From an uncultured Candidatus Binatia bacterium (GTDB lineage Bacteria; Desulfobacterota; Binatia; UBA9968; JAJDTQ01), in the NCBI GenBank assembly GCA_965242525.1, contig OZ251459.1, forward strand, positions 2,432,001-2,496,000: a stretch of DNA of 64,000 nucleotides. Direction: 5' to 3'. Under the pieces are notes generated by a model. It was given only the letters and a program-made list of their open reading frames with translations, had not been told where the DNA came from and ran no database searches. The translations under genes were made by a program, and so were the position numbers. Shown here piece by piece: positions 1 to 12,531 of this stretch (position 1 is the first letter of the stretch; each line of letters starts with the position of its first letter).

Positions 1-616
1 CGTTCGCACGCTTCGCCTTGAACAGAGGAGAGGTTCTCCACGTGCCGGCCGGATCGAGTATGGACGCTGCCGTCTTGCGGCGCCCAGAGTACCTGTTTAG
101 TGTCGGGTTTGGGGGATGCTCGCGGTCGCACACCAGAAACAACCTTTTTCGCGTCTGGGGGACCCTGAAGTCGGCCGCGTCAAAGGTCCGCTCGTCGAGG
201 TGGTAACCCAGTTCCCGGAGATTCCTTTTCAGTTCCTCGTACCGTGACCAGGGACGCATGTAGATGACGTTCTCGAGAACGAGCCAACGGGGTTGGAGAA
301 AGCGGGCATACTCGACCACGAGCATTGCGGTGGCACGGCTGGACTCGTCTCTCGGCGCCGAACCTTTGGCGCAGGTGTGATTGCGACACTCTGGCGACGC
401 GAGCAGGAGGTCGATCCGGCCCACCGCGGCCTTGAAGCGGTTGATAGACAGGTCTTCCAGCCGGCTGGTGACGACGTGGGCTTCCGGGAAGTTTGCTGCG
501 AAGGTAGTGGTAGCGGTCGCGCACATGTCGATTCCAGCTACGATCTCGACACCTGCCGCTCTTGCCCCGGCACTGCTCCCTCCTGCCCCGCAGAAGATGT
601 CACATCCCCGTATCAC
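1..616 (-). CDS. dcm: C5 cytosine DNA methyltransferase, 3' end beyond window edge
   Basis: Manual translation from GTG at 616: VIRGCDIFCGAGGSS (motif I FxGxGG), LASPEC (catalytic motif IV), LENV (motif VI), VPQTRKR (motif VIII). Start overlaps the vsr stop (GTGA). Absent from the ORF track because it runs off the window. Confidence 0.88.
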   Translation of the reverse strand, partial: MIRGCDIFCGAGGSSAGARAAGVEIVAGIDMCATATTTFAANFPEAHVVTSRLEDLSINRFKAAVGRIDLLLASPECRNHTCAKGSAPRDESSRATAMLVVEYARFLQPRWLVLENVIYMRPWSRYEELKRNLRELGYHLDERTFDAADFRVPQTRKRLFLVCDREHPPNPTLNRYSGRRKTAASILDPAGTWRTSPLFKAKRAN

Positions 617-1050
617 CTGACAGACTCGCTTGCGTCGCCCCTCTCCGAACCCAGGTAGTTCAGGAGGCGTTCCTGCATCGCCGCTTCGTTGCGGGTCTCG
701 CACTCCCAGAGGACGAGGACCTGCCATCCGAGTCGTTTCAAGGCGTCTTCGTTTCGGTGATCTCGGTCAACGTTCTGGCTGAACTTGTCGGTCCAGAACT
801 GCACTCTGGTTTTTGGTGTGTAGGCGTATGGGCAGCCACTGTGCCTGTGCCAGAAGCAGCCATGCACGAGGACAACGGCCCGGTGCCTTGGAAACACCAG
901 ATCAGGATGGCCCGGCAGGTCCTTGCGATACAGGCGGAAGCGGAATCCCAGGCGGTGCGCCATGCGGCGGACGACGAGTTCCGGGGTCGTGTCCCGCCAT
1001 TTGATCCTGGACATCATCTCGCTTCGTCTCTTGCCATCCACGATGTCCAT
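613..1050 (-). CDS. vsr: very short patch repair endonuclease
   Basis: MDIVDGKRRSEMMSRIK..DTTPE..LPGHPDLVF..VHGCFWHRH..LVLWECE, typical Vsr motifs; adjacent to a C5 MTase. Confidence 0.92.
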   Translation of the reverse strand: MDIVDGKRRSEMMSRIKWRDTTPELVVRRMAHRLGFRFRLYRKDLPGHPDLVFPRHRAVVLVHGCFWHRHSGCPYAYTPKTRVQFWTDKFSQNVDRDHRNEDALKRLGWQVLVLWECETRNEAAMQERLLNYLGSERGDASESVR

Positions 1051-1355
1051 TTTGAAACTGTCTGTTGTCCGAGGACGGTCGCCACGACCGTCCTCGGATG
1101 GTCCCAACCGAGGTTTGAAGGTAAAAACCAGCGTACCATACCACAGGTTGGCCGTTATTGTGCAGCGGATTCGAGATAACGTCGGTTTCGGTTGGCTCGG
1201 AGACGGCATCGGCGTCTTGTCCATCATCGTAACCTGAATCATGGTCCTCCCGTCGCCGCGGCGCATGCGCGTGGACGCTGGACCGTCCGGGGTCGATCTG
1301 CTAGACGTACACTCTTTGTATGGCCGCCTCGGCCCCTTGAACACGTCGATTCCCA

Positions 1356-2237
1356 ATGGCGCAAGACCGCGTGACCCTGGGGCTGATCCAGTCCGGAGCG
1401 GCCCCGGATCCGGACCGCAACCTCGCCGCGACCGCGCGGCGCATACGTCGTGCCGCGGAGGGCGGCGCCGAGGTCGTCTGCGTCCAGGAGTTGTTCCGCT
1501 CGCGGTACTTTCCCCGGACCGAGGACACTGCCTCGTTCGGCCTGGCGGAGACCATCCCCGGTCCCACCACCGAGCGGTTCCGCCCCCTGGCCCGGGACCT
1601 GGAGGTGGTCATCGTGGCCTCCGTGTTCGAGGCCCGCGCCCCCGGCGTCTATCACAACACCGCGGTGGTCATCGACGCGGACGGACGGGTCCTGGGCAAG
1701 TACCGCAAGATGCACATCCCCGACGACCCGGGCTTCCACGAGAAGTTCTACTTCACCCCCGGGGACCTGGGTTTCCCCGTGTTCCGCACCCGCCATGCCC
1801 GTGTGGGCGTGTTGATCTGCTGGGACCAGTGGTTTCCGGAAGCGGCGCGCCTGGCGGCCCTCGGAGGCGCCGAGATCCTCTTCTTCCCCACCGCCATCGG
1901 CTGGCGCGCGGACGAGGGCGCGGCGGCGCGCCGGGCCCAGCTCGACGCATGGGAGCTGGTGCAGCGTTCCCACGCGGTGACCAACGGCGTGTACGTGGCC
2001 GCGGTCAACCGCGTGGGCCGGGAGGGGGACCTCACCTTCTGGGGAAGCTCCTTTGCCGCGGACCCCTCCGGCCGGGTGCTGGCCCGGGCCGCCCGGCGCA
2101 AGGCCGAGACCCTGCTGGTGGAATGTGACCGGGCCGCGGTGGCGGAAGCCCGCCACGACTGGCCGTTCCTGAGGGACCGCCGGGTGGATGCCTATGGCGG
2201 CCTCACCCGCCGGCTGCTGGACGGCGAGCCCGGCTGA
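1356..2237 (+). CDS. aguB: N-carbamoylputrescine amidase (carbon-nitrogen hydrolase)
   Basis: Nitrilase triad motifs QELF, YRKMHIPDDPGFHEKFYF, ICWDQWFPE; next to agmatine deiminase. Confidence 0.85.
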   Translation: MAQDRVTLGLIQSGAAPDPDRNLAATARRIRRAAEGGAEVVCVQELFRSRYFPRTEDTASFGLAETIPGPTTERFRPLARDLEVVIVASVFEARAPGVYHNTAVVIDADGRVLGKYRKMHIPDDPGFHEKFYFTPGDLGFPVFRTRHARVGVLICWDQWFPEAARLAALGGAEILFFPTAIGWRADEGAAARRAQLDAWELVQRSHAVTNGVYVAAVNRVGREGDLTFWGSSFAADPSGRVLARAARRKAETLLVECDRAAVAEARHDWPFLRDRRVDAYGGLTRRLLDGEPG

Positions 2238-3982: not shown

Positions 3983-4015
3983 TCGAGCCGGAATGGACCA
4001 TGAAAGGCGGGCGCC

Positions 4016-4405
4016 GTGCCGACGCAACCCAGCAAGGAAATCGAGACCATCCCCAACCCGCGGCGGGATCGGGACTACGAAGTGGCCATGGAGTGCCCGG
4101 AGTTCACCTGCGTCTGCCCCCGGACCGGACAACCGGACTTCGCCACCATCCGCGTCCGCTACGTCCCCGGACCCGCGTGCATCGAGCTCCTGTCTCTGAA
4201 GCTCTACCTCTGGTCGTTCCGTGAGGAAGGGGTTTTCCACGAGGACGTGGTCAACCGCATACTCGACGACCTGGTGGCGGCCTGCTCGCCGAAATCCATG
4301 AGCGTGGTCGGGGAATTCCACGTGCGAGGCGGCATCCGTACGGTGGTGAGCGCGGAGTACCGGGCGGCCGATGGCGGCGACGCGGGAACGGCCGAGGGGG
4401 GTTGA
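4016..4405 (+). CDS. queF: preQ0 reductase (7-cyano-7-deazaguanine reductase)
   Basis: [36 protein letters not shown] motifs. Confidence 0.92.
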
Positions 4406-4408
4406 GCC

Positions 4409-5788
4409 ATGGCGGACGTGACCGAGAACTTTCGCAAGCTCCCGCCCCAGAACCTGGAGGCGGAGGCGTCGATCCTCGGCGGCGTGCTGCTGGACAACGA
4501 GTCCATGAACATCGTGGTGGAGCTGGTGAAGTTCGACGACCTGTACCGGGACTCGCACCGCAAGATCTACCGGGCCATGGTGGACCTCTGGGAACGCAGC
4601 GAGCCGGTGGACCTCATCACCCTGAGCGACCACATGAAGGCCAAGGGCGAGCTGGAGTCCGTCGGCGGCTCCGCCTACCTGGCCGAACTCGCGACCCAGA
4701 TCCCCACCGCGGCCAACATCGCCCACTACGCGCGCATCGTGCGGGACAAGGCCATACTGCGCCACCTGATCCGGGCCTCCACCGACATCGCCACACGGGG
4801 GCTGGAGGAAAGGGGCGACGTCGATACCTTCCTGGACGACGCGGAACGCGCCATCTTCGACATCTCGGAAAAACGCATCGGGGCCTCCTTCGTGAAGGTC
4901 GGCGACGTCATGATGGACGCCATCAAGAAGGTCGAGACGCTCTACAACCGCAAGGAGATGGTGACCGGAGTGGCCACCGGCTACCGGGACCTGGACCTGT
5001 TGACCGCGGGGTTCCAGCCGTCGGACCTGTTGATCGTCGCGGGGCGGCCGGCCATGGGGAAGACCGCGTTCGCCCTCAACGTCGCGGCCAACGCCTCGCT
5101 GCACCAGGGCGTGGGCGTGGCGGTCTTCTCACTGGAGATGGCCACGGAGCAACTGGTGCTGAGGCTGCTTTGCTCGGAGGCGAGGGTGGATCATGCCCGG
5201 CTCCGCACCGGCCACCTGAAGGAAAGCGAGTTCCCGGAGCTGGTGACGGCCGCGGGGAGGCTCAGGGACGCGCCGGTCTATATCGACGACACGCCCGCGT
5301 TGTCGGTGCTGGAGGTCCGGGCCAAGACCCGGCGGCTGTTGCGGGACAAGTCCAGCAAGCTGGGCCTGGTGGTCATCGACTACCTCCAGCTCATGCGCGG
5401 CCACGGCGATTCGCCCAACCGCGAGCAGGAGATCTCGGAGATCTCGCGCTCCCTCAAGGCCCTCGCCAAGGAGCTGAGCGTTCCGGTGGTGGCCATCTCC
5501 CAGCTCAACCGGCGGGTGGAGGAGCGGAGCGACAAGCGCCCGGTCATGGCCGACCTGCGGGAGTCCGGCGCCATCGAGCAGGACGCCGACGTGATCATGT
5601 TCGTGTACCGGGACGATGCCTACGACCCGAAGAAGAACCCGGGCCTGGCCGAGGTCATCGTGGCCAAGCAGCGCAACGGCCCGGTGGACACGGTGCAACT
5701 CGCCTTCCTCAAGGAATACACCCGCTTCGAGGACTATTCGGGACGCGACGACGAGGGTTACTCGGACGCCGAAGCCGAGGAGTATTAG
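4409..5788 (+). CDS. dnaB: replicative DNA helicase
   Basis: PPQNLEAE, AGRPAMGKT, IDYLQLM, DLRESGAIEQDAD, KQRNGP. Confidence 0.98.
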   Translation: MADVTENFRKLPPQNLEAEASILGGVLLDNESMNIVVELVKFDDLYRDSHRKIYRAMVDLWERSEPVDLITLSDHMKAKGELESVGGSAYLAELATQIPTAANIAHYARIVRDKAILRHLIRASTDIATRGLEERGDVDTFLDDAERAIFDISEKRIGASFVKVGDVMMDAIKKVETLYNRKEMVTGVATGYRDLDLLTAGFQPSDLLIVAGRPAMGKTAFALNVAANASLHQGVGVAVFSLEMATEQLVLRLLCSEARVDHARLRTGHLKESEFPELVTAAGRLRDAPVYIDDTPALSVLEVRAKTRRLLRDKSSKLGLVVIDYLQLMRGHGDSPNREQEISEISRSLKALAKELSVPVVAISQLNRRVEERSDKRPVMADLRESGAIEQDADVIMFVYRDDAYDPKKNPGLAEVIVAKQRNGPVDTVQLAFLKEYTRFEDYSGRDDEGYSDAEAEEY

Positions 5789-5791
5789 GAG

Positions 5792-5820
5792 GGTTTCCCC
5801 GCACGCGCGGGGATAGACTC
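5792..5820 (+). CRISPR. solitary type I-E-like CRISPR repeat R1
   Basis: GGTTTCCCCGCACGCGCGGGGATAGACTC: 29 nt, CCCCGC/GCGGGG hairpin with 4-nt loop and ATAGACTC handle, resembling the I-E consensus; 3 nt after the dnaB stop. Confidence 0.65.
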
Positions 5821-6064
5821 GAACCCGTCCGCACGCCGATAGCAATACGGGTTTATGGCGACGACGGGATATGTTTACTTGGGCGCGCCAATGGAGATCC
5901 TGCGGGAGAGTGGCCGGACTGGGCAGACGGGCGCGCCAAACGACGGCTACCCAGCCGGTATCCGGGGGAGCGTGCAACCAGCTATGTAGCCACGACTGGG
6001 CGGTTTTCAAGGCTTCGGAACTTGCCGGAATGCGGCCGGCCGTCTTCGGAGTAAGGGAAGGGAA

Positions 6065-6262
6065 ATGGCAAAGGGGAAACTGGTTTGGCATCGACACAAG
6101 CGGACCGAAGGCACGGCCGTTGTTTGCGGCGCCAGTGTCAAGCGCGCTCGGGCTCGGGTGGAAGCCTGGTCCGATGTTTCCTGCATGGTTTGCATACGCA
6201 AAGGGCATGAAAGCGGGGAATACCCTTATGGGCAAGCGCCCGAAGAGGACAACCGGCAATAA
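6065..6262 (+). CDS. small Cys/His-containing (possible Zn-binding) hypothetical protein
   Basis: 65 aa, purine-rich RBS (GGGAAGGGAA), HxH..C..W..VxCxxC pattern. Confidence 0.55.
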   Translation: MAKGKLVWHRHKRTEGTAVVCGASVKRARARVEAWSDVSCMVCIRKGHESGEYPYGQAPEEDNRQ

Positions 6263-6336
6263 TGTATGTACTCCCTTACGATCACTTTGGTTCGATGGCA
6301 ACTATAATCGGAACCTTAACAGGTTCCGGCAGGCCG

Positions 6337-6407
6337 TGGCGCCGGAAGCATTCACGCTACTCTCATGCCTGCGGGCGAGCGCGGGGGTCGTGGCCCGCCC
6401 GGCGCCA
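6337..6407 (+). ncRNA. putative structured tRNA-like small RNA, copy 1
   Basis: TGGCGCCGG/CCGGCGCCA closing stem, GCC-TGCG-GGC hairpin, GCGGG/CCCGC stem; homologous to 8285-8355 and 8645-8712; TATAAT at 6303. Confidence 0.55.
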
Positions 6408-6408
6408 C

Positions 6409-6750
6409 TCACCACTTTCCCTCTTGTCTATCGGACCTTCTTGAACCTTCGGCGGGCGACCCTGATGTCGCAATCTCGCCCGCGAAGTCGTCCACCAACT
6501 GAAAGGCGGCCTGCGCTCCTTGGACCGATCCGGCGACGGTCTCCAAGAACGCCTCCAGCGTCTGCGTGTCGACGCCGAGGACACGACTGACGAGGTTACG
6601 GACGCCGTTGCTGAGCGAAGAAGCCAGACTGGTCAATCCGACAGCCGCCGGCAGCGGGGACACCGACTTCGAGGCTCTGAGGACCTTCTTCAGCGATCCG
6701 GAGAAGTGATCGACGAAACGCAGGATCGCGCGCAGATTCAGGTCAGCCAT
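6409..6750 (-). pseudogene. phage tape-measure protein N-terminal fragment A
   Basis: MADLNLRAILRFVDHFSGSLKKV... LETVAGSVQGAQAAFQLVDDFA resembles TMP N-termini; truncated near 6480. Confidence 0.55.
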
Positions 6751-6786
6751 GGTTGACTTTCAGGGTGGGAGGCATATATTCACAGT

Positions 6787-6960
6787 ATGGATTTCATCAT
6801 CGGCATCGTGCTCATCTGGATCGCCGTGAAGCTCTGGAGGATCGCCAAGAAACTGGAGCGGGTGGTGGAGGTGATGACAAGCATCGATCCCGACGACCTC
6901 GATGCGACGTTTAGGGCGCTAGACGAAATCGACCCACCTGCGAAGTCCGCTCCGCATTGA
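6787..6960 (+). CDS. small single-TM membrane protein (moron-like 1)
   Basis: Manual translation MDFIIGIVLIWIAVKLWRIAKKLERVVEVMTSIDPDDLDATFRALDEIDPPAKSAPH (57 aa, below ORF-track cutoff); preceded by TTGACT-N16-TATATT. Confidence 0.65.
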   Translation: MDFIIGIVLIWIAVKLWRIAKKLERVVEVMTSIDPDDLDATFRALDEIDPPAKSAPH

Positions 6961-7186
6961 GCGCCTCACTCGCCCCGTCCTCCATCCACATCAACCCGTC
7001 CAGGGTCTCCGGCGCCAGAGGCAGCAGCCCCGACAGGTCCAACAGCGCCCGCCCCCTGGGTTCAGTCGAGGCCCACGCCACCGGCCCGAAGCCGGCTCCA
7101 ATCAAGCCTCTCTCGGCCGACTTCACCGACTCTTGCGTCTGGTCCCGGCCACGGATGCTGATGAGCGCGGCGAGATTCGTGGCCAT
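6911..7186 (-). pseudogene. chimeric ORF: tape-measure N-terminus B fused to tail-chaperone-like (DUF1799-like) C-terminus A
   Basis: MATNLAALISIRGRDQTQESVKSAERGL joined to ...LDLSGLLPLAPETLDGLMWMEDGASEALN. Confidence 0.5.
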
Positions 7187-7220
7187 TGACTTGATTCCTC
7201 TGGTGCTCTATACGGGAGCC

Positions 7221-7439
7221 ATGAGAGTCAGGATCGACCTTGATTTGGGCGGGGTCCTTAGCTGCATCGGCGCCATGCTTTACGTCTTGGTGACCGGGAT
7301 CGTGCTGTTCAGCGCCGTGCTCCTCATGGCGGACGGCGTCCGCTTCTCGCTTCCCACCATCCTGATGCTGAGCCTGCTGGGCACGCTCGTCGTGCCGGCT
7401 GTGCGCTACATCGTCCGGTTCAATCGCTACGGCAGTTGA
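7221..7439 (+). CDS. small two-TM membrane protein (moron-like 2)
   Basis: MRVRIDLDLGGVLSCIGAMLYVLVTGIVLFSAVLLM...LLGTLVVPAVRYIVRFNRYGS; preceded by TTGACT-N17-TATACG. Confidence 0.65.
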   Translation: MRVRIDLDLGGVLSCIGAMLYVLVTGIVLFSAVLLMADGVRFSLPTILMLSLLGTLVVPAVRYIVRFNRYGS

Positions 7440-7578
7440 GCGCCGCGGCCGCGCCTTCCGCCATCCACATCAACCCGTCCAGCGTGTCCCGTTCCAGTGG
7501 CAGCAGGCCCGCCATGTCGAGGGTCGCTCGCACTCCGGGCCAGTCCAGACGCCAGATCACGTAGCCCGTCTGCCCGAG
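7420..7578 (-). pseudogene. tail-chaperone-like (DUF1799-like) C-terminal fragment B
   Basis: LGQTGYVIWRLDWPGVRATLDMAGLLPLERDTLDGLMWMAEGAAAALN; homologous to fragment A; abuts CRISPR repeat R2. Confidence 0.55.
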
Positions 7579-7579
7579 A

Positions 7580-7608
7580 GGTTCCCCCGCACGTGCAGGG
7601 ATAGACTC
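7580..7608 (+). CRISPR. solitary type I-E-like CRISPR repeat R2
   Basis: GGTTCCCCCGCACGTGCAGGGATAGACTC, 3 mismatches to R1, same orientation. Confidence 0.65.
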
Positions 7609-7609
7609 G

Positions 7610-7877
7610 GCGCGGACCGGAGGTCCGTTCCGGTCCCGCGGGTGAGGTCGAATACGGCCTCGGCCGCCTCCTGGGTCGGCGTGGCCTGCAACGCGGTGTC
7701 CGCAATGCGACCGATCCGCCGGATGATGCCTATGCCGCCCAGGACGGTCAGGGCGTCGGCGCAGTACTTGCCGATGTTGCCGGCCAGGCGGCGGAAGCGC
7801 TTGTCGGCCGAATCCGTCCCCGCCTTGGTCCTGTCCAAGGCTTCGAGGACCGCCCCGAATCTTATGGGATCAGCCAC
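7610..7877 (-). pseudogene. phage tape-measure protein N-terminal fragment C
   Basis: VADPIRFGAVLEALDRTKAGTDSADKRFRRL...QEAAEAVFDLTRGTGTDL; cut off at repeat R2. Confidence 0.5.
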
Positions 7878-7913
7878 TTGACACCAGTTCCTTCGATGGC
7901 TATTGGGATAGGC

Positions 7914-8093
7914 ATGGCAACCATCGCCGAGTTCGTCCTGCGGGTAGGGTTCGCCGTGGCGCTGATCTTCGCCTCGCCGTTTCTGCTGCTCTTCATCTTG
8001 AGCTACCAGGAACATCCCGAGTTGGCCTTGATGTCCGGCGGAATAGCTGCATGGCTGCTCATGAAGATCTTCGTGCCGCGGCGGTATCAGTGA
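7914..8093 (+). CDS. small two-TM membrane protein (moron-like 3)
   Basis: MATIAEFVLRVGFAVALIFASPFLLLFILSYQEHPELALMSGGIAAWLLMKIFVPRRYQ; preceded by TTGACA-N17-TATTGG. Confidence 0.65.
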   Translation: MATIAEFVLRVGFAVALIFASPFLLLFILSYQEHPELALMSGGIAAWLLMKIFVPRRYQ

Positions 8094-8099
8094 TCCGCC

Positions 8100-8160
8100 T
8101 CATGTGACCTTCCGGTTCAGCGCATCATCGACCAAGACGAAGTACTCCAGCCCAACAAAC
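8100..8160 (-). pseudogene. short tail-chaperone-like C-terminal fragment C
   Basis: TFVGLEYFVLVDDALNRKVT* occupies the same position relative to the moron as fragments A/B and aligns weakly with TLDGLMWM..ALN. Confidence 0.35.
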
Positions 8161-8284
8161 GTCCTCCAGGACGGACCCGAGACCTACCTGCTCGCGCTGC
8201 ACCGCATGGAGGAATACATCCTCGCCGCCGCTCGCCGGAAACCGAAGAAAATCAGGCAGGGAAGTCGAAAAGCTGTTGAGATGA

Positions 8285-8355
8285 GGCGCTGGGCGGGCCA
8301 CAACCCCCGCGCTCGCCCGCAGGCATGAGAGTATTGCGAATATGCTTCCAGCGCC
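8285..8355 (-). ncRNA. putative structured tRNA-like small RNA, copy 2
   Basis: GGCGCTGG/CCAGCGCC stem; promoter TTGACA(8391-8386)-N17-TAGGTT(8368-8363) lies 7 nt upstream. Confidence 0.6.
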
Positions 8356-8469
8356 AGCCCGGAACCTAACCCGGACCGCCGCAGTTGTCAATCAGAAGGT
8401 TGGCTTCTTGCGGCTTTTGTGTGGGCAGGATTTACGGCGTAGGTACGGCGAGGTTGAGGGAAGGAGTCG

Positions 8470-8602
8470 TCTACCGGGGAAGGCGTGGCCTTCGACCCCT
8501 AGCCGGGGCAGGAGCGGTTGGAGTGGCGGCGCTCCGGCAGGGTATTGCTACGTGGGAGTCGAGATCGACCCTCTATTTGCAGAGGTGGCTAGGCAGCAGC
8601 TA
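8470..8602 (+). pseudogene. frameshifted remnant of amino-DNA-methyltransferase C-terminus
   Basis: Pieces FDP / AGAGAVGVAALRQG / YCYVGVEIDPLFAEVARQQL in different frames match the DPFxGSGTT..AA..GR..IGxEID motif I region. Confidence 0.5.
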
Positions 8603-8644
8603 TCTCTGATTGACAATGGCGACGGCCTGGTTTAGGTTCCGGGC

Positions 8645-8712
8645 TGGCGCTGGAAGCAGCACTACTCTCATGCCTGCGGGCGAGCGCGGGGATTGCGTCC
8701 CGCCCAGCGCCA
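8645..8712 (+). ncRNA. putative structured tRNA-like small RNA, copy 3
   Basis: TGGCGCTGG/CCAGCGCCA stem; promoter TTGACA(8610)-N17-TAGGTT(8633) directly upstream. Confidence 0.6.
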
Positions 8713-8776
8713 CTTCCTCGCTTTTCAAGTTTCTCCTGCTCTCCCACCTTCTTCCATTTCCGGCGAGCGGCTCGGA

Positions 8777-8805
8777 GGTTCCCCCGCACGTGCGGGGATA
8801 GGCCT
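8777..8805 (+). CRISPR. solitary type I-E-like CRISPR repeat R3 (3'-degenerate)
   Basis: GGTTCCCCCGCACGTGCGGGGATAGGCCT; perfect hairpin, diverged 3' handle. Confidence 0.6.
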
Positions 8806-8864
8806 TTGGTTGCCGGGTCCGTGCTCGGACGTCGAGGACGTATTCGGAGTTTGCGGCCGGGAAT

Positions 8865-9296
8865 CTACGCTGCCCGGTCCTCGACCACGAGGCTGCGTCC
8901 GATGGCTCGCAGGGCCTTCTCCACTTGGCTGATGTGAGAGCGGTGGCCGGGGTTCAGCAGCTTGCGGACGGCGCCCTCGCTCAGCCCCAGGCGAGCGGCG
9001 AGGGCGACCTTGGTGACGCCTTGGCTGCGCATCGCCGAATAGAGGGCGACCTTGGCCGCGACGATGGGAGGAACCGCGACGAGTTCCTGGCCTTGGGCAG
9101 CGGCGCTTGGAGCCGGGACGTCCTCACGGCCATGAACGTAGGCGCTCAAGGCGGCCGCCAAGGCATCCTCGGCCATAGTCAGCGCCTCGGCCCGATCCTC
9201 GCCGCAGGTGAGCGCTTCAGGCACGTCCGGGAAAGAGACGGAGAAACCGCCGCCGTCCGCCTCGGGAGCCAGCACGCAGGGGTAGGCGTAGCGCAT
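8865..9296 (-). CDS. hicB: HicB family antitoxin with C-terminal HTH
   Basis: MRYAYPCVLAPEADGGGFSVSFPDVPEALTCGEDRAEALTMAEDAL; C-terminal TKVALAARLGLSEGAVRKLL. Confidence 0.9.
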   Translation of the reverse strand: MRYAYPCVLAPEADGGGFSVSFPDVPEALTCGEDRAEALTMAEDALAAALSAYVHGREDVPAPSAAAQGQELVAVPPIVAAKVALYSAMRSQGVTKVALAARLGLSEGAVRKLLNPGHRSHISQVEKALRAIGRSLVVEDRAA

Positions 9297-9457
9297 CAGA
9301 AGTCCTCCTTCGGGATGTCCAGTTGCTTCAGCATGGCCTGAAAGGCCCCAAGCTTCAGTTCTCCATGTTTGACGGTCGTGCGACGGTCGCCAACGTAGAG
9401 CACGCCATGGTTGCCCTTCCCGTGGCGTGGATCGAAACGGAACGGCTTTCCGACTTT
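9296..9457 (-). pseudogene. hicA: HicA toxin lacking its N-terminus
   Basis: KVGKPFRFDPRHGKGNHGVLYVGDRRTTVKHGELKLGAFQAMLKQLDI; stop overlaps hicB ATG; in-frame TAA directly upstream, no start codon. Confidence 0.7.
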
Positions 9458-9493
9458 TTAGAAGGCTTTGGCTACGGGAAGGGGAGAACCACC

Positions 9494-9748
9494 GTGACGG
9501 AGTTTGAAGCCGCAACGCTCGCACTACAGCAGCAACAGCTTTGGGCCGCTCTCGCCGTCCCCCTTGTCGCCCTCATTGTCGGAGCCGGGCAGGTCATCGT
9601 CGTCTCTGTCGGTATCCGGGTCATGCGGCGCACATCGGATCAGAGGGAGAAGCGCGAAGACGCCCGCCACGCCGAAGCGATGGAAGCGCTGCGACAGCAG
9701 GCCGAAGCCTTGCGCGTCCTCATCGAACGGACCGCGCCTCGCCGGTAA
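9494..9748 (+). CDS. small TM + coiled-coil hypothetical protein
   Basis: GTG with GGAG RBS; TM segment then REDARHAEAMEAL..LIERTAP; paralogue of 9962-10300. Confidence 0.7.
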   Translation: MTEFEAATLALQQQQLWAALAVPLVALIVGAGQVIVVSVGIRVMRRTSDQREKREDARHAEAMEALRQQAEALRVLIERTAPRR

Positions 9749-9961
9749 CGGCCGGCGCCGCCGGGGAAGGGAGACAGCGCTACGGGAACCACCGGCCGCT
9801 ACGGCCCACGGAGACGGAAACCGAAGTAGCGGCCATGCCTGCGTTGGCAGGTCCGCCGCGGAAAACAAACCCTGCATTCGTCTCTGTCGGGGGAGTCGCA
9901 GACGGGTCGCGCCGCGCAACGATGGCCCCGGATTCTGCGGGCGGTTCCGGTGCGGCGGCGG

Positions 9962-10300
9962 TCATTGGCTGTCTCTCTTCGGCGATGTTCTCTCGATCAG
10001 GGTCTCCATGCCTCTGATGAGGCCCCGGAGAGATTCGTCCTGCTGCCGGAGAGATTCGCCCTGCTGCCGGAGCGCTTCCATGCTTTCGGCATGGTTGCTC
10101 CGGAGCACTTCCATGCTTTCGGTATGGTTGCTCCGGAGCGCTTCCATGCTTTCGGCATGGCGCTGGTCTTCGCGACGCGCCCGTTCCTCCGTGGACTGGC
10201 GCATCTGCCGCAAGCCTATGAGGATGGCCGTAACCGATCCCAAAGCGGCGACGGCGCTGATGCCCCGGAGAACGGTGTTGGCAAGCTCGTAGTCCGTCAT
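9962..10300 (-). CDS. small TM + coiled-coil protein with internal tandem repeats
   Basis: MTDYELA..TM..REDQRHAESMEALRSNHTESMEVLRSNHAESMEALRQQGESLRQQDESL..LIERTSP. Confidence 0.72.
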   Translation of the reverse strand: MTDYELANTVLRGISAVAALGSVTAILIGLRQMRQSTEERARREDQRHAESMEALRSNHTESMEVLRSNHAESMEALRQQGESLRQQDESLRGLIRGMETLIERTSPKRDSQ

Positions 10301-10360
10301 GTCCGTCTCCCTTCCTGCGATTGATAACACGCCCTGCATGGAACCACCACATGATCTACG

Positions 10361-10416
10361 GGAAACCCTGAACAACGGCCCGTTCGTCCTGAGCGAAGCG
10401 AAGCCGAAGGACGCGC
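10361..10416. repeat. REP-like motif with IS5-type end
   Basis: GGAAACCCTGAACAA followed by CCGTTCGTCCTGAGCGAAGCGAAGCCGAAGGACGCGC. Confidence 0.6.
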
Positions 10417-10471
10417 TTGGCGAATCGAGAGTGCGCCAGCGTAGCGGCGAAAGCGCCCGCGGCGGACCCCG

Positions 10472-11088
10472 CTACGGCGCCAGGTCCAGGACGCGCCGGA
10501 CCCGGGTGGACACGTCGTTGCCGCGGGTCAGGTAGCCGATCATGGCCGCGGCGTCGGCGCCGCGGCGCCAGGCTTCGGGCGCGTTGTCCGCGGTGACGCC
10601 GCCGATGGCGACGATGGGGATGCGCACCCGGCGTCTTACGGACTCGAGCATGGGGAGGCCGCGGGACGAATAGCCGGTCTGCTTGGTTCGGGTGGCGAAC
10701 AGGGGGCCGAACCCGATGTAGTCGGCGCCGCCCTGTTCCGCCTGCTCCGCCTGGGCGAGGCTGTGGGTGGAGACGCCGACGAGTTTGCCGCCCATCAGGG
10801 GCCGGGCCGCTTCCAGGGGCAGGTCCTCCTGTCCCAGGTGCACCCCGTCGGCGTCCGCGGCCAGGGCGATGTCCAGCCGGTCGTTGACGATGAAGAGGCA
10901 ACCGGCCCGTGCGGTCCGTTCCCGCACGGTCAGGGCGGTGCGCAGGAACTCGCCTGCCGGCCGGTCCTTCAACCGCAACTGGAGCACCGAGACGCCGCCG
11001 GCGAGCATGGCGTCCACCACCCGGACCAGCGGGCGGCCCCCGGTCTGGTCCCCGTCCGCGATGGCGTAGAGCCGCGACCGCAGGCAGC

Positions 11089-11092
<4 letters not shown>
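10472..11092 (-). CDS. thiE: thiamine-phosphate synthase
   Basis: LQLRLK, IVNDRLDIALA, DGVHLGQED, GVSTHS, FATRTK, VAIGGV. Confidence 0.95.

Positions 11093-12531
<1,439 letters not shown>

Follow-up and report, generated by a model that had tools for sequence, protein, structure and literature searches.

A 4.7 kb patchwork occupies the variable hotspot between dnaB and thiE in an uncultured Candidatus Binatia bacterium (G000), and set into it are three co-oriented type I-E CRISPR repeats that adjoin truncated phage tail genes. We give an even chance to the reading that this locus is the remnant of a decayed I-E array without cas genes, in which the DNA between the repeats was built by recombination and not by Cas1-Cas2 insertion. 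The locus has the look of a scar that a CRISPR array and phage DNA left on recombining, and not of a novel form of immune memory. The latter had been proposed in a preliminary description of the window (the whole 64,000-nucleotide stretch analysed), which saw there an archive of functional phage modules delimited by the repeats.

The three repeats are of type I-E

5792-5820, plus strand: R1, orphan I-E repeat, 27/29 against the genus consensus; starts 3 nt past the dnaB stop codon
7580-7608, plus strand: R2, orphan I-E repeat, 26/29 with one stem mismatch; at the joint of the unit d tape-measure fragment and the unit c chaperone fragment (units are described below)
8777-8805, plus strand: R3, orphan I-E repeat, 26/29 with a diverged 3′ end

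As the preliminary description had it, these are 29-nt repeats in one orientation, separated by 1759 bp (R1-R2) and 1168 bp (R2-R3), with 3 mismatches between R1 and R2 and 4 between R2 and R3. Three matches were found where 100 shuffles gave an expectation of 0. Throughout the 4.23 Mb genome R1-R3 are the sole copies; in a scan of its 29-mers they score 26–27/29, and the next best score is 22/29, at two sites. A canonical array with the same repeat does exist in congeners, where the arrays have a 61-nt period and lie beside I-E cas genes; those of G014, G009 and G022, among others, have Cas7e no more than a few kb away. R1-R3 agree with the repeat of these arrays at 26–27 of 29 bases, the unpaired 5′ and 3′ parts included, and share the sequence, hairpin and 3′ handle common to cas-adjacent arrays. 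The core repeat pattern is present in 11 of the 40 other genomes searched, with runs of 20–102 copies in G001, G009, G011, G014, G015 and G022. R1-R3 are thus true I-E-type CRISPR repeats. What they lack is the regular spacing of an array, as the spacers of relatives' I-E arrays measure 32–33 nt and the gaps here exceed a kilobase. The suggestion that R3 is a trailer repeat is not demonstrable.

In a comparison of 14 distinct copies of the repeat, 94% of pair cells preserve the hairpin, one compensatory change included; this level is not significant (reached by 79 of 500 shuffles). It is highly improbable that R1-R3 are ordinary intergenic hairpins of the REP or terminator kind, or chance matches with no relation to CRISPR: R1 does lie immediately 3′ of the dnaB stop and each repeat forms a G+C-rich hairpin, but three genomic copies do not make the high-copy REP that the preliminary description had set against its own reading, no T-tract follows the hairpins, and the close match is to repeats beside I-E cas operons.

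The repeat junctions are sound in the assembly

Each repeat is bridged, over hundreds of bases, by two sets of Logan contigs that come from other sequencing runs, both assembled from short reads. X2 contigs cover 5564-6387, 6359-8332 and 8304-9072 with 0 differences, and X6 contigs, from another study, cover 5510-6386, 6357-8069 and 8305-9419 at about 96–98% identity. The island is therefore not an assembly chimera, a danger that the preliminary description had raised, and the assembly is sound at R1-R3. The same samples also contain repeat joints with 29–33 nt between the two sides, and therefore canonical arrays of other organisms. Such arrays could mislead an assembler into joining CRISPR reads of co-occurring relatives to phage and chromosomal DNA, yet with independent contigs across every repeat and a metagenome protein (P0005) that crosses an R2-like junction in another assembly, we regard this as scarcely credible.

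The dnaB-thiE interval holds a variable island

5789..10471, no strand: whole variable island, 4.68 kb, from the dnaB stop (5788) to the thiE stop (10472)
6065..6262, plus strand: 65-aa ORF in the R1-R2 stretch; weak match to phrog_13952 (E 7.8e-4); GC3 0.62
6321..6409, plus strand: element E copy a, structured, ~80 nt
8227..8396, minus strand: left arm of a 176-nt inverted duplication (80% identity); holds element E copy b (about 8285-8367)
8605..8771, plus strand: right arm of the inverted duplication; holds element E copy c (8634-8716) and ends 6 nt before R3
8865-9296, minus strand: hicB (HicB-like domain and HTH); Pfam HicB_lk_antitox 31.2 bits, phrog_497 E 7e-29
about 9296-9462, minus strand: hicA remnant, 5′-truncated, aligned with the intact hicBA of G023

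The distance between dnaB and thiE is ~20–25 bp in G004 and G010 and ~540 bp in G012. At the same site G023 carries a different 4.7 kb island, in which hicBA, element E and a degenerate repeat are also present, in another order. Neither the compared strains nor the species showed cassettes gained or lost at the repeats. Most of the inserted DNA in G000 consists of three copies of a phage tail segment, and the rest is made up of three copies of element E (two of them in the inverted duplication), the hicBA remnant and other DNA. Coding by the 65-aa ORF is uncertain because of its GC3 and weak PHROG match.

The preliminary description had counted two kinds of phage locus, each sampled three times. 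This holds for the tail-gene segment; the second kind is instead element E, which is structured and dispersed and turns up in ordinary intergenic DNA beyond the island too.

Three copies of a phage tail segment

6409..6750, minus strand: unit b tape-measure N-terminal fragment, 113-aa ORF; 48% identical to P0003 (92 aa, E 2e-24)
6753-6780, plus strand: unit b promoter-like TTGACT-16-TATATT (pattern match)
6787-6960, plus strand: unit b 57-aa small hydrophobic ORF; ATG 6 nt past the −10 box; GC3 0.79, GC2 0.35
6911..7186, minus strand: fused 91-aa ORF, ~30 aa of tape-measure-like start (unit c) and the unit b chaperone-extension C-terminal fragment
7186-7214, plus strand: unit c promoter-like TTGACT-17-TATACG (pattern match)
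7221-7439, plus strand: unit c 72-aa small hydrophobic ORF; GC3 0.88, GC2 0.39
7420..7579, minus strand: unit c chaperone-extension C-terminal fragment, abutting R2 (alignment A2; matched by the intact extensions of G024 and G010)
7609..7877, minus strand: unit d tape-measure N-terminal fragment, GTG start 7877, ending at R2
7878-7906, plus strand: unit d promoter-like TTGACA-17-TATTGG (pattern match)
ATG 7914 to stop 8093, plus strand: unit d small hydrophobic ORF

The three units are diverged copies of one phage-derived layout, namely the end of a tail-assembly chaperone frameshift extension, an antisense small ORF of putative membrane type with its own promoter-like site, and the start of a tape-measure gene. 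The final ~45 codons of the chaperone extension are followed in each segment by a gap of 200–300 nt that holds the small ORF and then by the first 30–110 tape-measure codons. In all three units the small ORF is intact between truncated flanking genes, as had been noticed earlier, and a −35/−10 consensus-like pair, recognized by pattern match only, precedes its ATG by 6–7 nt. The membrane character of these ORFs was judged by eye, and none of the three belongs to a Pfam or PHROG family.

Homology to proteins from elsewhere bears out the claim that R2 lies between a tape-measure fragment and a chaperone fragment. The N-terminal part of P0003 matches the tape-measure family phrog_1716 (E 1e-18) and, below the Pfam cut-off, the tape-measure family TMP_3 (E 4e-7). 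On one side of R2, the unit d tape-measure fragment has a 21-aa match to a G010 tape-measure protein (E 7e-5) and 83% identity to residues 1–29 of P0005; on the other, the unit c chaperone fragment is 75% identical to residues 38–88 of P0005. The chaperone-end profile A2 matches 3 of the 123 genomes of the order, G000 itself and intact tail modules in G024 and G010. These prophage-like modules carry intact versions of the unit segment, with a tape-measure gene (Pfam TMP_2, 38–45 bits; phrog_27166, E 1e-45 to 1e-47) and, in the gap between it and the chaperone gene, an antisense hydrophobic ORF of ~70 aa whose ATG stands 7 nt past a −35/−10-like pair. The units are of phage origin and derive from a siphophage-type tail module that occurs in the genus. 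No match to two of the unit ORFs was found by tblastn in 50,697 phage records, and no source phage of the units was found.

Contrary to what had been supposed, repeats do not mark off every unit. Units b and c are fused directly within the 91-aa ORF, where a covariance model detected no degenerate repeat, and only one unit junction bears a repeat.

The genome lacks type I-E cas genes

G000 has no I-E cas genes. Its genome is 98.96% complete, and neither the Cas6e nor the Cas7e Pfam model matched it; tblastn with four G014 proteins out of the I-E set (Cas3, Cse2, Cas7e and Cas1e, leaving Cse1, Cas5e, Cas6e and Cas2 aside) returned nothing but one weak helicase match. Ten of 27 congeners encode Cas7e, which is missing from G000, G002 and G023. 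Even with as many as 3 mismatches allowed, the window does not contain the leader of the G014 and G011 arrays, and R1 begins directly after dnaB. Acquisition by Cas1-Cas2, one of the routes first proposed, is thus unsupported. The two CRISPR arrays that G000 does possess use other repeats, and none of 527 spacers (333 I-E spacers from relatives and 194 of its own) matched the island beyond 17 nt.

Similar junctions recur elsewhere

Junctions of the same kind recur in other genomes and in metagenomes. The cas-less congeners G002 and G023, like G000, contain cassettes of 160–1760 bp flanked by repeats. G002 has five co-oriented orphan repeats spaced 191, 1140, 240 and 302 bp apart, between which lie a Phage_TAC_7 gene (32.8 bits), element E and a small ORF. 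Toxin-antitoxin cassettes adjoin repeats in G023 and G002. The metagenome proteins P0003/P0014 and P0005 run in one reading from a tape-measure fragment through the translated repeat into a chaperone fragment, with differing break points and with the repeat in both orientations. The source contigs of P0014 and of P0009, a chaperone-end fragment, both have a length of 4692.

Origin of the locus

Phage DNA would have entered the former array by homologous or illegitimate recombination, either between spacer and protospacer or between repeats, and deletions would have followed. R1-R3 would now be inert because no Cas6e is present, and the small membrane proteins would probably still be expressed. 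Since the source phage was not found, we can only infer the route of recombination. Two observations sit uneasily with decay. The same phage junction stands beside I-E repeats in at least three lineages, a regularity greater than random decay would predict and one that allows for a directed process; and in G002 element E alternates with gene cassettes between the repeats, a pattern that simple decay does not explain.

An unlikely alternative is that R1-R3 are solitary repeat units (Racr-type RNA anti-CRISPR decoys) from prophages or mobile elements, left behind with phage DNA after decay. According to the available part of PMC10651486, prophage solitary repeats that mimic those of the host are widespread and some inhibit type I systems, I-E included; as described there, Racr resemble this locus in being repeat mimics outside arrays, away from cas, beside phage DNA and of the subtype of the host group. 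Decoys would have a target, as I-E systems that use this repeat are frequent among congeners and also in the same samples, where canonical repeat-spacer joints occur; the repeats directly abut phage gene fragments, and G024 and G007 have solo repeats near relaxase and coupling-protein genes. Yet the host itself is without the subtype and no intact mobile element accompanies the fragments. Nor are the copies solitary, with three co-oriented within 3 kb in G000 and five in a row in G002. A simple sigma-70 scan gave no promoter-like site immediately upstream of R1-R3, its sole site being the unit b ORF promoter. Within the 20 kb examined, G024 and G010 have no repeat in their intact tail modules, and one scan for the repeat among viral contigs returned a single contig, with an ordinary array at its end. 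Finally, the phage does not have the two sides of R2 next to each other in this order, an arrangement that does not result from recombination at a single phage-borne repeat.

Slightly less likely still is the active archive, in which Cas1-Cas2 or a dedicated, integron-like recombinase inserted phage modules that were kept for exclusion-type immunity. The repeat-flanked cassettes of three genomes, the tape-measure/repeat/chaperone junctions with their varied break points and orientations, and the intact ORF and promoter amid broken genes in every unit all agree with it. So do the toxin-antitoxin cassettes beside repeats, which integron arrays likewise contain, and the three differences within the unit b small ORF (6924, 6933 and 6936; X6 and X4) among the 40 of 340 differences listed, which fall at third codon positions of that ORF and at second positions of the overlapping chaperone frame. 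Against an archive, I-E cas genes and a leader are absent from G000, and Cas7e from G002 and G023; units b and c are joined with neither an intact nor a degenerate repeat; the genes lie on both strands; no unit was gained or lost at repeats between the compared strains; and I-E Cas1-Cas2 measures ~33 bp.

Comparison with known systems

The preferred reading, a decayed array remodelled by recombination, has partial precedents. Varble 2019 and Watson 2018 reportedly describe spacer-protospacer recombination, in connection with transduction of CRISPR loci, and Faure 2019 is said to advance the hypothesis that viruses integrate into arrays through solitary repeats. Events of these kinds would put phage DNA against repeats with genes cut there, as at R2. 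In the available parts of two reviews (PMC8616872, PMC10651486), recombination between spacer and target counts as documented, and solitary repeats are proposed as the route by which viral genomes integrate into arrays; the same parts describe no relic array with tandem phage fragments as its footprint in a chromosome. Orphan arrays left after cas loss are a known type in the portion of PMC8616872 available. Like them, the locus has a repeat type present in relatives, no cognate cas genes and repeats diverging from the consensus; unlike them, it has spacings of 1.2–1.8 kb that hold gene-bearing phage and other DNA.

The small ORFs recall the gp15 moron of HK97, a small inner-membrane superinfection-exclusion protein whose gene, in the available part of PMC3594210, lies between the chaperone and tape-measure genes. 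The putative membrane type, a predicted promoter of its own and this slot are all shared, the slot and its antisense ORF also by the intact modules of G024 and G010. In contrast to gp15, with which they have no sequence similarity, the unit genes are antisense to the tail genes and occur in three copies without a phage. By this analogy, the predicted small membrane proteins may confer superinfection exclusion, blocking injection by related phages.

Integron arrays consist of short cassettes, toxin-antitoxin genes among them, separated by a repeated structured site, and the locus resembles them in this respect. Its site is instead a CRISPR repeat, and some cassette boundaries have no repeat; genes on both strands, with promoter-like sites of their own, argue against membership in a class marked by attC sites, an IntI integrase and co-oriented, promoterless cassettes.

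A mobile element that inserts into an array, such as an IS within a spacer, likewise opens a kilobase gap between repeats. The inserts in G000 differ from such cases in having neither a transposase nor terminal inverted repeats and in being truncated tail-gene pieces present three times. An example of such an insertion is found in G005, where an IS630-type transposase occupies a 1.16 kb gap at the end of an array.

Three orphaned type I-E repeats between dnaB and thiE

In this genome, 4.68 kb of DNA (5789–10471) separates dnaB from thiE, and within it lie three 29-nt repeats, R1–R3. The preliminary description had reported three co-oriented copies, and a 25-nt repeat pattern with up to three mismatches recovered exactly these in the window and none in 100 shuffles. 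The gaps of 1759 and 1168 bp and the number of differences (three between R1 and R2, four between R2 and R3) also agreed with that description.

Type I-E repeats in the dnaB-thiE island
5792–5820, plus strand: R1, starting 3 nt after the dnaB stop codon
7580–7608, plus strand: R2, between the tape-measure fragment of phage unit d and the chaperone end of unit c
8777–8805, plus strand: R3, 6 nt beyond copy c of a structured element, element E

Across the whole assembly (4.23 Mb in seven contigs, 98.96% complete), R1–R3 are the sole copies of the repeat. They score 26–27 of 29 in a genome-wide 29-mer scan, and the runners-up reach 22 of 29 at two sites and 21 of 29 at six, so the repeat is not a high-copy REP sequence, an alternative that had been raised at the outset. 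Canonical arrays with the same repeat are present in congeners. Of 40 other genomes searched, 11 contain the core pattern (10 of 24 from the same genus, 1 of 11 from a neighboring family). In G001, G009, G011, G014, G015 and G022 its copies, 20 to 102 in a run, recur every 61 nt as 29-nt repeats with 32–33 nt spacers. Type I-E Cas7e is encoded by 10 of 27 congeners and lies a few kb from such arrays in G014, G009 and G022. R1–R3 are true type I-E CRISPR repeats, orphaned in this genome.

The I-E cas genes that the preliminary description had proposed to look for in the whole genome were not found. Pfam models for Cas6e and Cas7e had no match, and tblastn with Cas3, Cse2, Cas7e and Cas1e of G014, a query set that excluded Cse1, Cas5e, Cas6e and Cas2 (missed by the ORF filter), returned only a weak match to a helicase of another system. 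Cas1 is present at two further CRISPR-Cas loci, whose arrays of 55 and 141 repeats are unrelated in repeat sequence to R1–R3. The leader of the G014 and G011 arrays is absent from the window, and a search of 4000–11500 with Rfam models (E up to 1) matched nothing, CRISPR-DR families included. A covariance model built on the repeat detected no additional degenerate copy in this island, in those of G002 and G023, or in the intact tail modules of relatives; a stretch to the left of the G023 hicB that had looked hairpin-like by eye was not picked up either. A scan of viral contigs for the repeat gave a single contig, which ends in an ordinary array that is decaying. Because no Cas6e is encoded, the repeats are probably inert now. 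They could act solely as RNA hairpins; the genes upstream on the plus strand are dnaB for R1 and the unit c small ORF for R2.

Twelve sequencing runs contain part of this stretch, with no RNA run listed among them, and four of the twelve, all represented by short-read contigs, were compared with it. Contigs of run X2 are identical to the window and bridge R1 (5564–6387), R2 (6359–8332) and R3 (8304–9072). Run X6, from a different study and labelled as a sponge metagenome, is ~96–98% identical, and its contigs bridge the same three places (5510–6386, 6357–8069, 8305–9419), so a related strain shares this architecture. All three repeats are thus bridged in both runs, as the assembly would have it. 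The repeat-to-repeat joints are not deletion variants: 29–33 other letters lie between their sides, and they belong to canonical arrays of other organisms in these samples.

Composition of the island

The site is variable among relatives. In G004 and G010, dnaB and thiE are convergent neighbors ~20–25 bp apart, and in G012 a gap of ~540 bp consists of REP-like DNA. G023, the nearest of the relatives compared, with flanking proteins ~95% identical, carries a different 4.7 kb island at the same site. A large methylase-like ORF comes first there, then hicA and hicB, both intact, then a degenerate I-E repeat in which one stem change is compensatory, and finally element E (~110 nt). Only hicBA, element E and a repeat are common to the two islands, and their order differs. 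REP-like palindromic units with CCGTCATTCCCGCGAAAGCGGGAATCC fill the G012 interval (L027 1240–1770) and flank the G023 island (L028 8270–8460, 12840–12960); a unit resembling this palindrome also adjoins the solitary element E copy of the own genome.

After R1, ~500 bp of unassigned DNA with a doubtful 65-aa ORF precedes copy a of element E. Among 15 island ORFs searched against Pfam and PHROGs, HicB was the sole significant match. In the hicB-hicA pair (8865–9462), only hicB is intact; compared with G023, hicA is missing its 5' end, so that the antitoxin is orphaned. Further HicB-like fragments occur at C1:3334712–3336278 of the own genome, ~12 kb from an ortholog (C1:3322036–3323157) of the gene flanking the G014 I-E locus. 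Two members of a small hydrophobic/coiled-coil protein family lie at 9323–9745 (plus) and 9965–10375 (minus). This family has at least ten paralogous places in the genome; one member contains 33-nt and 21-nt tandem repeats, with the 33-nt set at 10067–10165, and G002 has a 70-aa relative flanked by two orphan repeats (L029:9610–9819). Outside the island, a cytosine-methyltransferase-like ORF and then a Vsr-type endonuclease-like ORF were recognized by eye from translations at 2–1356 (minus).

Phage tail segments between the repeats

A phmmer search of the full library with the 91-aa ORF at 6914–7186 (minus) returned 13 proteins at E up to 0.001, of which seven are short metagenome proteins carrying its C-terminal motif. 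A profile of this motif (A2) matched 3 of 123 genomes of the order: the own genome at two sites, and G024 and G010 at one each. In G024 and G010 the motif ends a second reading frame that runs beyond a 142-aa tail-type ORF (phrog_569, E 4e-10), the position expected of a tail assembly chaperone frameshift extension. Beyond this frame, after a gap of 210–300 nt, comes a tape-measure gene, which scores 38.5 and 45.5 bits against Pfam TMP_2 (above cut-off) and E 1e-45 to 1e-47 against phrog_27166. The gap contains an antisense ORF of ~70 residues, rich in hydrophobic stretches, preceded by a promoter-like pair identified by eye (TTGACC-17-TAGACT in G024, TTGAAC-16-TAGAAT in G010). Its ATG lies 7 nt past the −10-like box, and its −35 box directly adjoins the start codon of the tape-measure gene.

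The window holds copies of this segment three times, on the minus strand.

Phage units in the island
6914–7084, minus strand: unit b, chaperone end
6787–6960, plus strand: unit b, small ORF with TTGACT-16-TATATT at 6753–6780
6750–6412, minus strand: unit b, tape-measure start, 48% identical to metagenome protein P0003 over 92 aa (E 2e-24)
7579–7423, minus strand: unit c, chaperone end
7221–7439, plus strand: unit c, small ORF with TTGACT-17-TATACG
7186 to ~7090, minus strand: unit c, tape-measure-like start of only ~30 codons
7914–8093, plus strand: unit d, small ORF with TTGACA-17-TATTGG
7877–7609, minus strand: unit d, tape-measure start, its final 21 residues before R2 matching the G010 tape measure (E 7e-5)
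Unit d lacks a chaperone end.

The N-terminal part of P0003 matches tape-measure families. A simple promoter scan recognized the site of unit b as the only promoter-like one. Codon-position G+C of the small ORFs (GC3 0.76–0.88, GC2 0.35–0.41) supports their being coding. The small ORFs are mutually unrelated in sequence, and no similarity was detectable between the tape-measure fragments of units b and d. The chaperone ends of units b and c, 76–81% alike at the DNA level, are the sole similar parts, so the units derive from different phages of one family and not from recent duplication. R2 lies exactly between the truncated unit d tape-measure fragment and the unit c chaperone end, as had been noted earlier. 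Units c and b are fused directly, without a repeat, and the covariance model finds no degenerate copy at the joint.

This tail module was not found intact in the own genome. Further searches were likewise negative: tblastn of two unit ORFs against phage records, comparison of these ORFs with the 27 congeners, a search for relatives longer than the 113-aa ORF, and locus searches with P0003 (genome and metagenome contigs) and with A2 (metagenome contigs) yielded nothing.

Similar junctions in other genomes

In G002, where both Cas7e and a canonical array are missing, five repeats run in the same direction at spacings of 191, 1140, 240 and 302 bp. Element E occupies the first and third intervals. 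The second contains a chaperone gene matching Phage_TAC_7 (32.8 bits) and two more ORFs, one of 111 aa and one truncated, and the fourth a small hydrophobic/coiled-coil ORF; a partial element E follows the last repeat. In metagenomes, P0003 and its cluster mate P0014 read through from 125 tape-measure residues across a repeat translated in plus orientation into a chaperone end, and P0005 spans a junction like that at R2, being 83% identical to one side and 75% to the other, with a degenerate repeat between them. P0014 and the chaperone-end fragment P0009 both lie on contigs of equal length (4692), so tandem units probably exist there too. The differing break points and repeat orientation argue against a site-specific reaction at one phage sequence. 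Together, the island and its relatives in G002, G023 and metagenome contigs offer several independent examples whose break points can be read base by base. Microhomology of the repeat 3' end with chaperone 'EIDW' codons, apparent in G024 and hinted at by P0003, was considered and set aside.

Other interrupted arrays proved to be different cases. The 1.16 kb gap at the array end of G005 (L022 334–1496), between the last array repeat and a further repeat, is an IS630-type insertion with an apparently frameshifted transposase gene. The 2.2 kb gaps splitting the I-E arrays of G014 (L035 2911–5064) and G011 (L039 2211–4427) are one conserved segment, 88% identical and with inverted ends, unrelated to our island, and gaps of 132 nt are runs of N. 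Solo I-E repeats in G024 (L046, C1:4028000–4044000) and G007 (L047, C1:4750000–4763000) lie near I-E cas and/or relaxase and coupling-protein genes, which suggests that the I-E system of the genus travels on conjugative elements.

Predicted small membrane-protein genes

Judged from sequence, a predicted antisense small membrane-protein gene between the chaperone and tape-measure genes is a conserved feature of this phage family, and it is probably leaderless. The small ORFs occupy the same genomic slot as HK97 gene 15, whose small inner-membrane product keeps superinfecting phages from delivering their DNA (PMC3594210). The host, without the phage, keeps the gene in triplicate, which makes it a testable candidate for domesticated superinfection exclusion. 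Of the parts of the island, the small ORFs are the likeliest to have a function. A further idea, prompted by PMC11364771, is that the truncated tape-measure and chaperone fragments might disturb tail assembly.

Among the 40 of 340 differences listed between the run contigs and the window, three (6924, 6933, 6936) fall in the unit b small ORF. Counting codons places each on a third position of this ORF and on a second position of the chaperone frame that overlaps it, at most a hint that the small ORF is under purifying selection.

Element E

Element E is dispersed and ~80 nt long, with island copies at 6321–6409, 8285–8367 (minus) and 8634–8716. Copies b and c lie within a 176-nt inverted duplication (8227–8396 / 8605–8771, 80% identity). 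Further copies were found in G002 (including L029:8043–8126 and 9373–9448), G009, G017, G018 and G023 (including L028:12746–12825), and in G002 the element has a CRISPR repeat on either side. An alignment of ten copies supports a fold of three stems, a closing one of 8 bp and two inner ones; two pairs are changed on both sides (U-A to C-G in three of ten, C-G to U-A in five of ten). The shape is tRNA-like, the long closing stem leading directly into a 5-bp stem-loop; ARAGORN found no tRNA over 5000–11000, and Rfam had no match to the element.

The preliminary description had two kinds of phage locus each sampled three times. This holds for the tail segment, with its three units. For element E, the second kind, a phage origin was not demonstrated, and a fourth copy in the own genome lies in ordinary intergenic DNA (C1:667214–667293).

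Origin of the island

The preferred reading of the locus is a decayed orphan CRISPR array that has been reshaped through recombination with phages and carries putatively domesticated moron genes. Spacer-guided recombination with phages would have put phage DNA into the former array; later deletions, fusions, the inverted duplication and loss of the cas operon would then have produced the present patchwork. Such a route would account for the gene cuts at repeat boundaries, the repeated sampling of one conserved phage region, the variable break points and the occurrence of either repeat orientation. Phages and CRISPR loci are known from laboratory work to recombine. PMC8616872 and PMC10651486 describe recombination of spacers with their phage targets and the proposal that viral genomes integrate into arrays through repeat-like sequences. 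Neither a source phage nor a matching spacer was found, and the spacer-guided route stands as an inference.

A further reading, which we consider unlikely, is that the genus uses I-E repeats as boundaries of a gene-sized cassette store. Captured phage segments with exclusion genes would alternate with the repeat-flanked, tRNA-shaped element, and the store would outlive loss of cas by protecting through captured genes, not guide RNAs. Capture between repeats would proceed by spacer- or repeat-guided recombination, followed by retention under selection. This reading stays alive because repeats, phage junction fragments and element E are regularly associated in three species.

Insertion of kilobase DNA by Cas1-Cas2 is unsupported, given the lack of cas genes and a leader, the repeat-less unit fusions and the irregular break points. 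The observation in the preliminary description is confirmed and the descriptive half of its interpretation is supported; the mechanistic half, with Cas1-Cas2 acquisition and an ordered archive, lacks support. A non-exhaustive text search of the literature found no description of a natural chromosomal footprint of phage-CRISPR recombination.

Spacer comparisons

Comparison of 527 spacers with the genome and the islands gave no real match to this island, the best being 17 nt. One G009 spacer matched the G024 chaperone gene at 23 of 32 bases, too weak to use. A spacer of the own 55-repeat array (C1:435889–439444) matches contigs C4 and C6 perfectly along 35 of its 37 nt; these contigs, 8–10 kb long, may represent an extrachromosomal or phage element under targeting, or the match may be a case of self-targeting. 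Finally, a 32-nt I-E spacer of G015 matches C1:682922–682949 of the own genome at 26 of 28 aligned bases, and this site may belong to a prophage or mobile element that members of the genus share.
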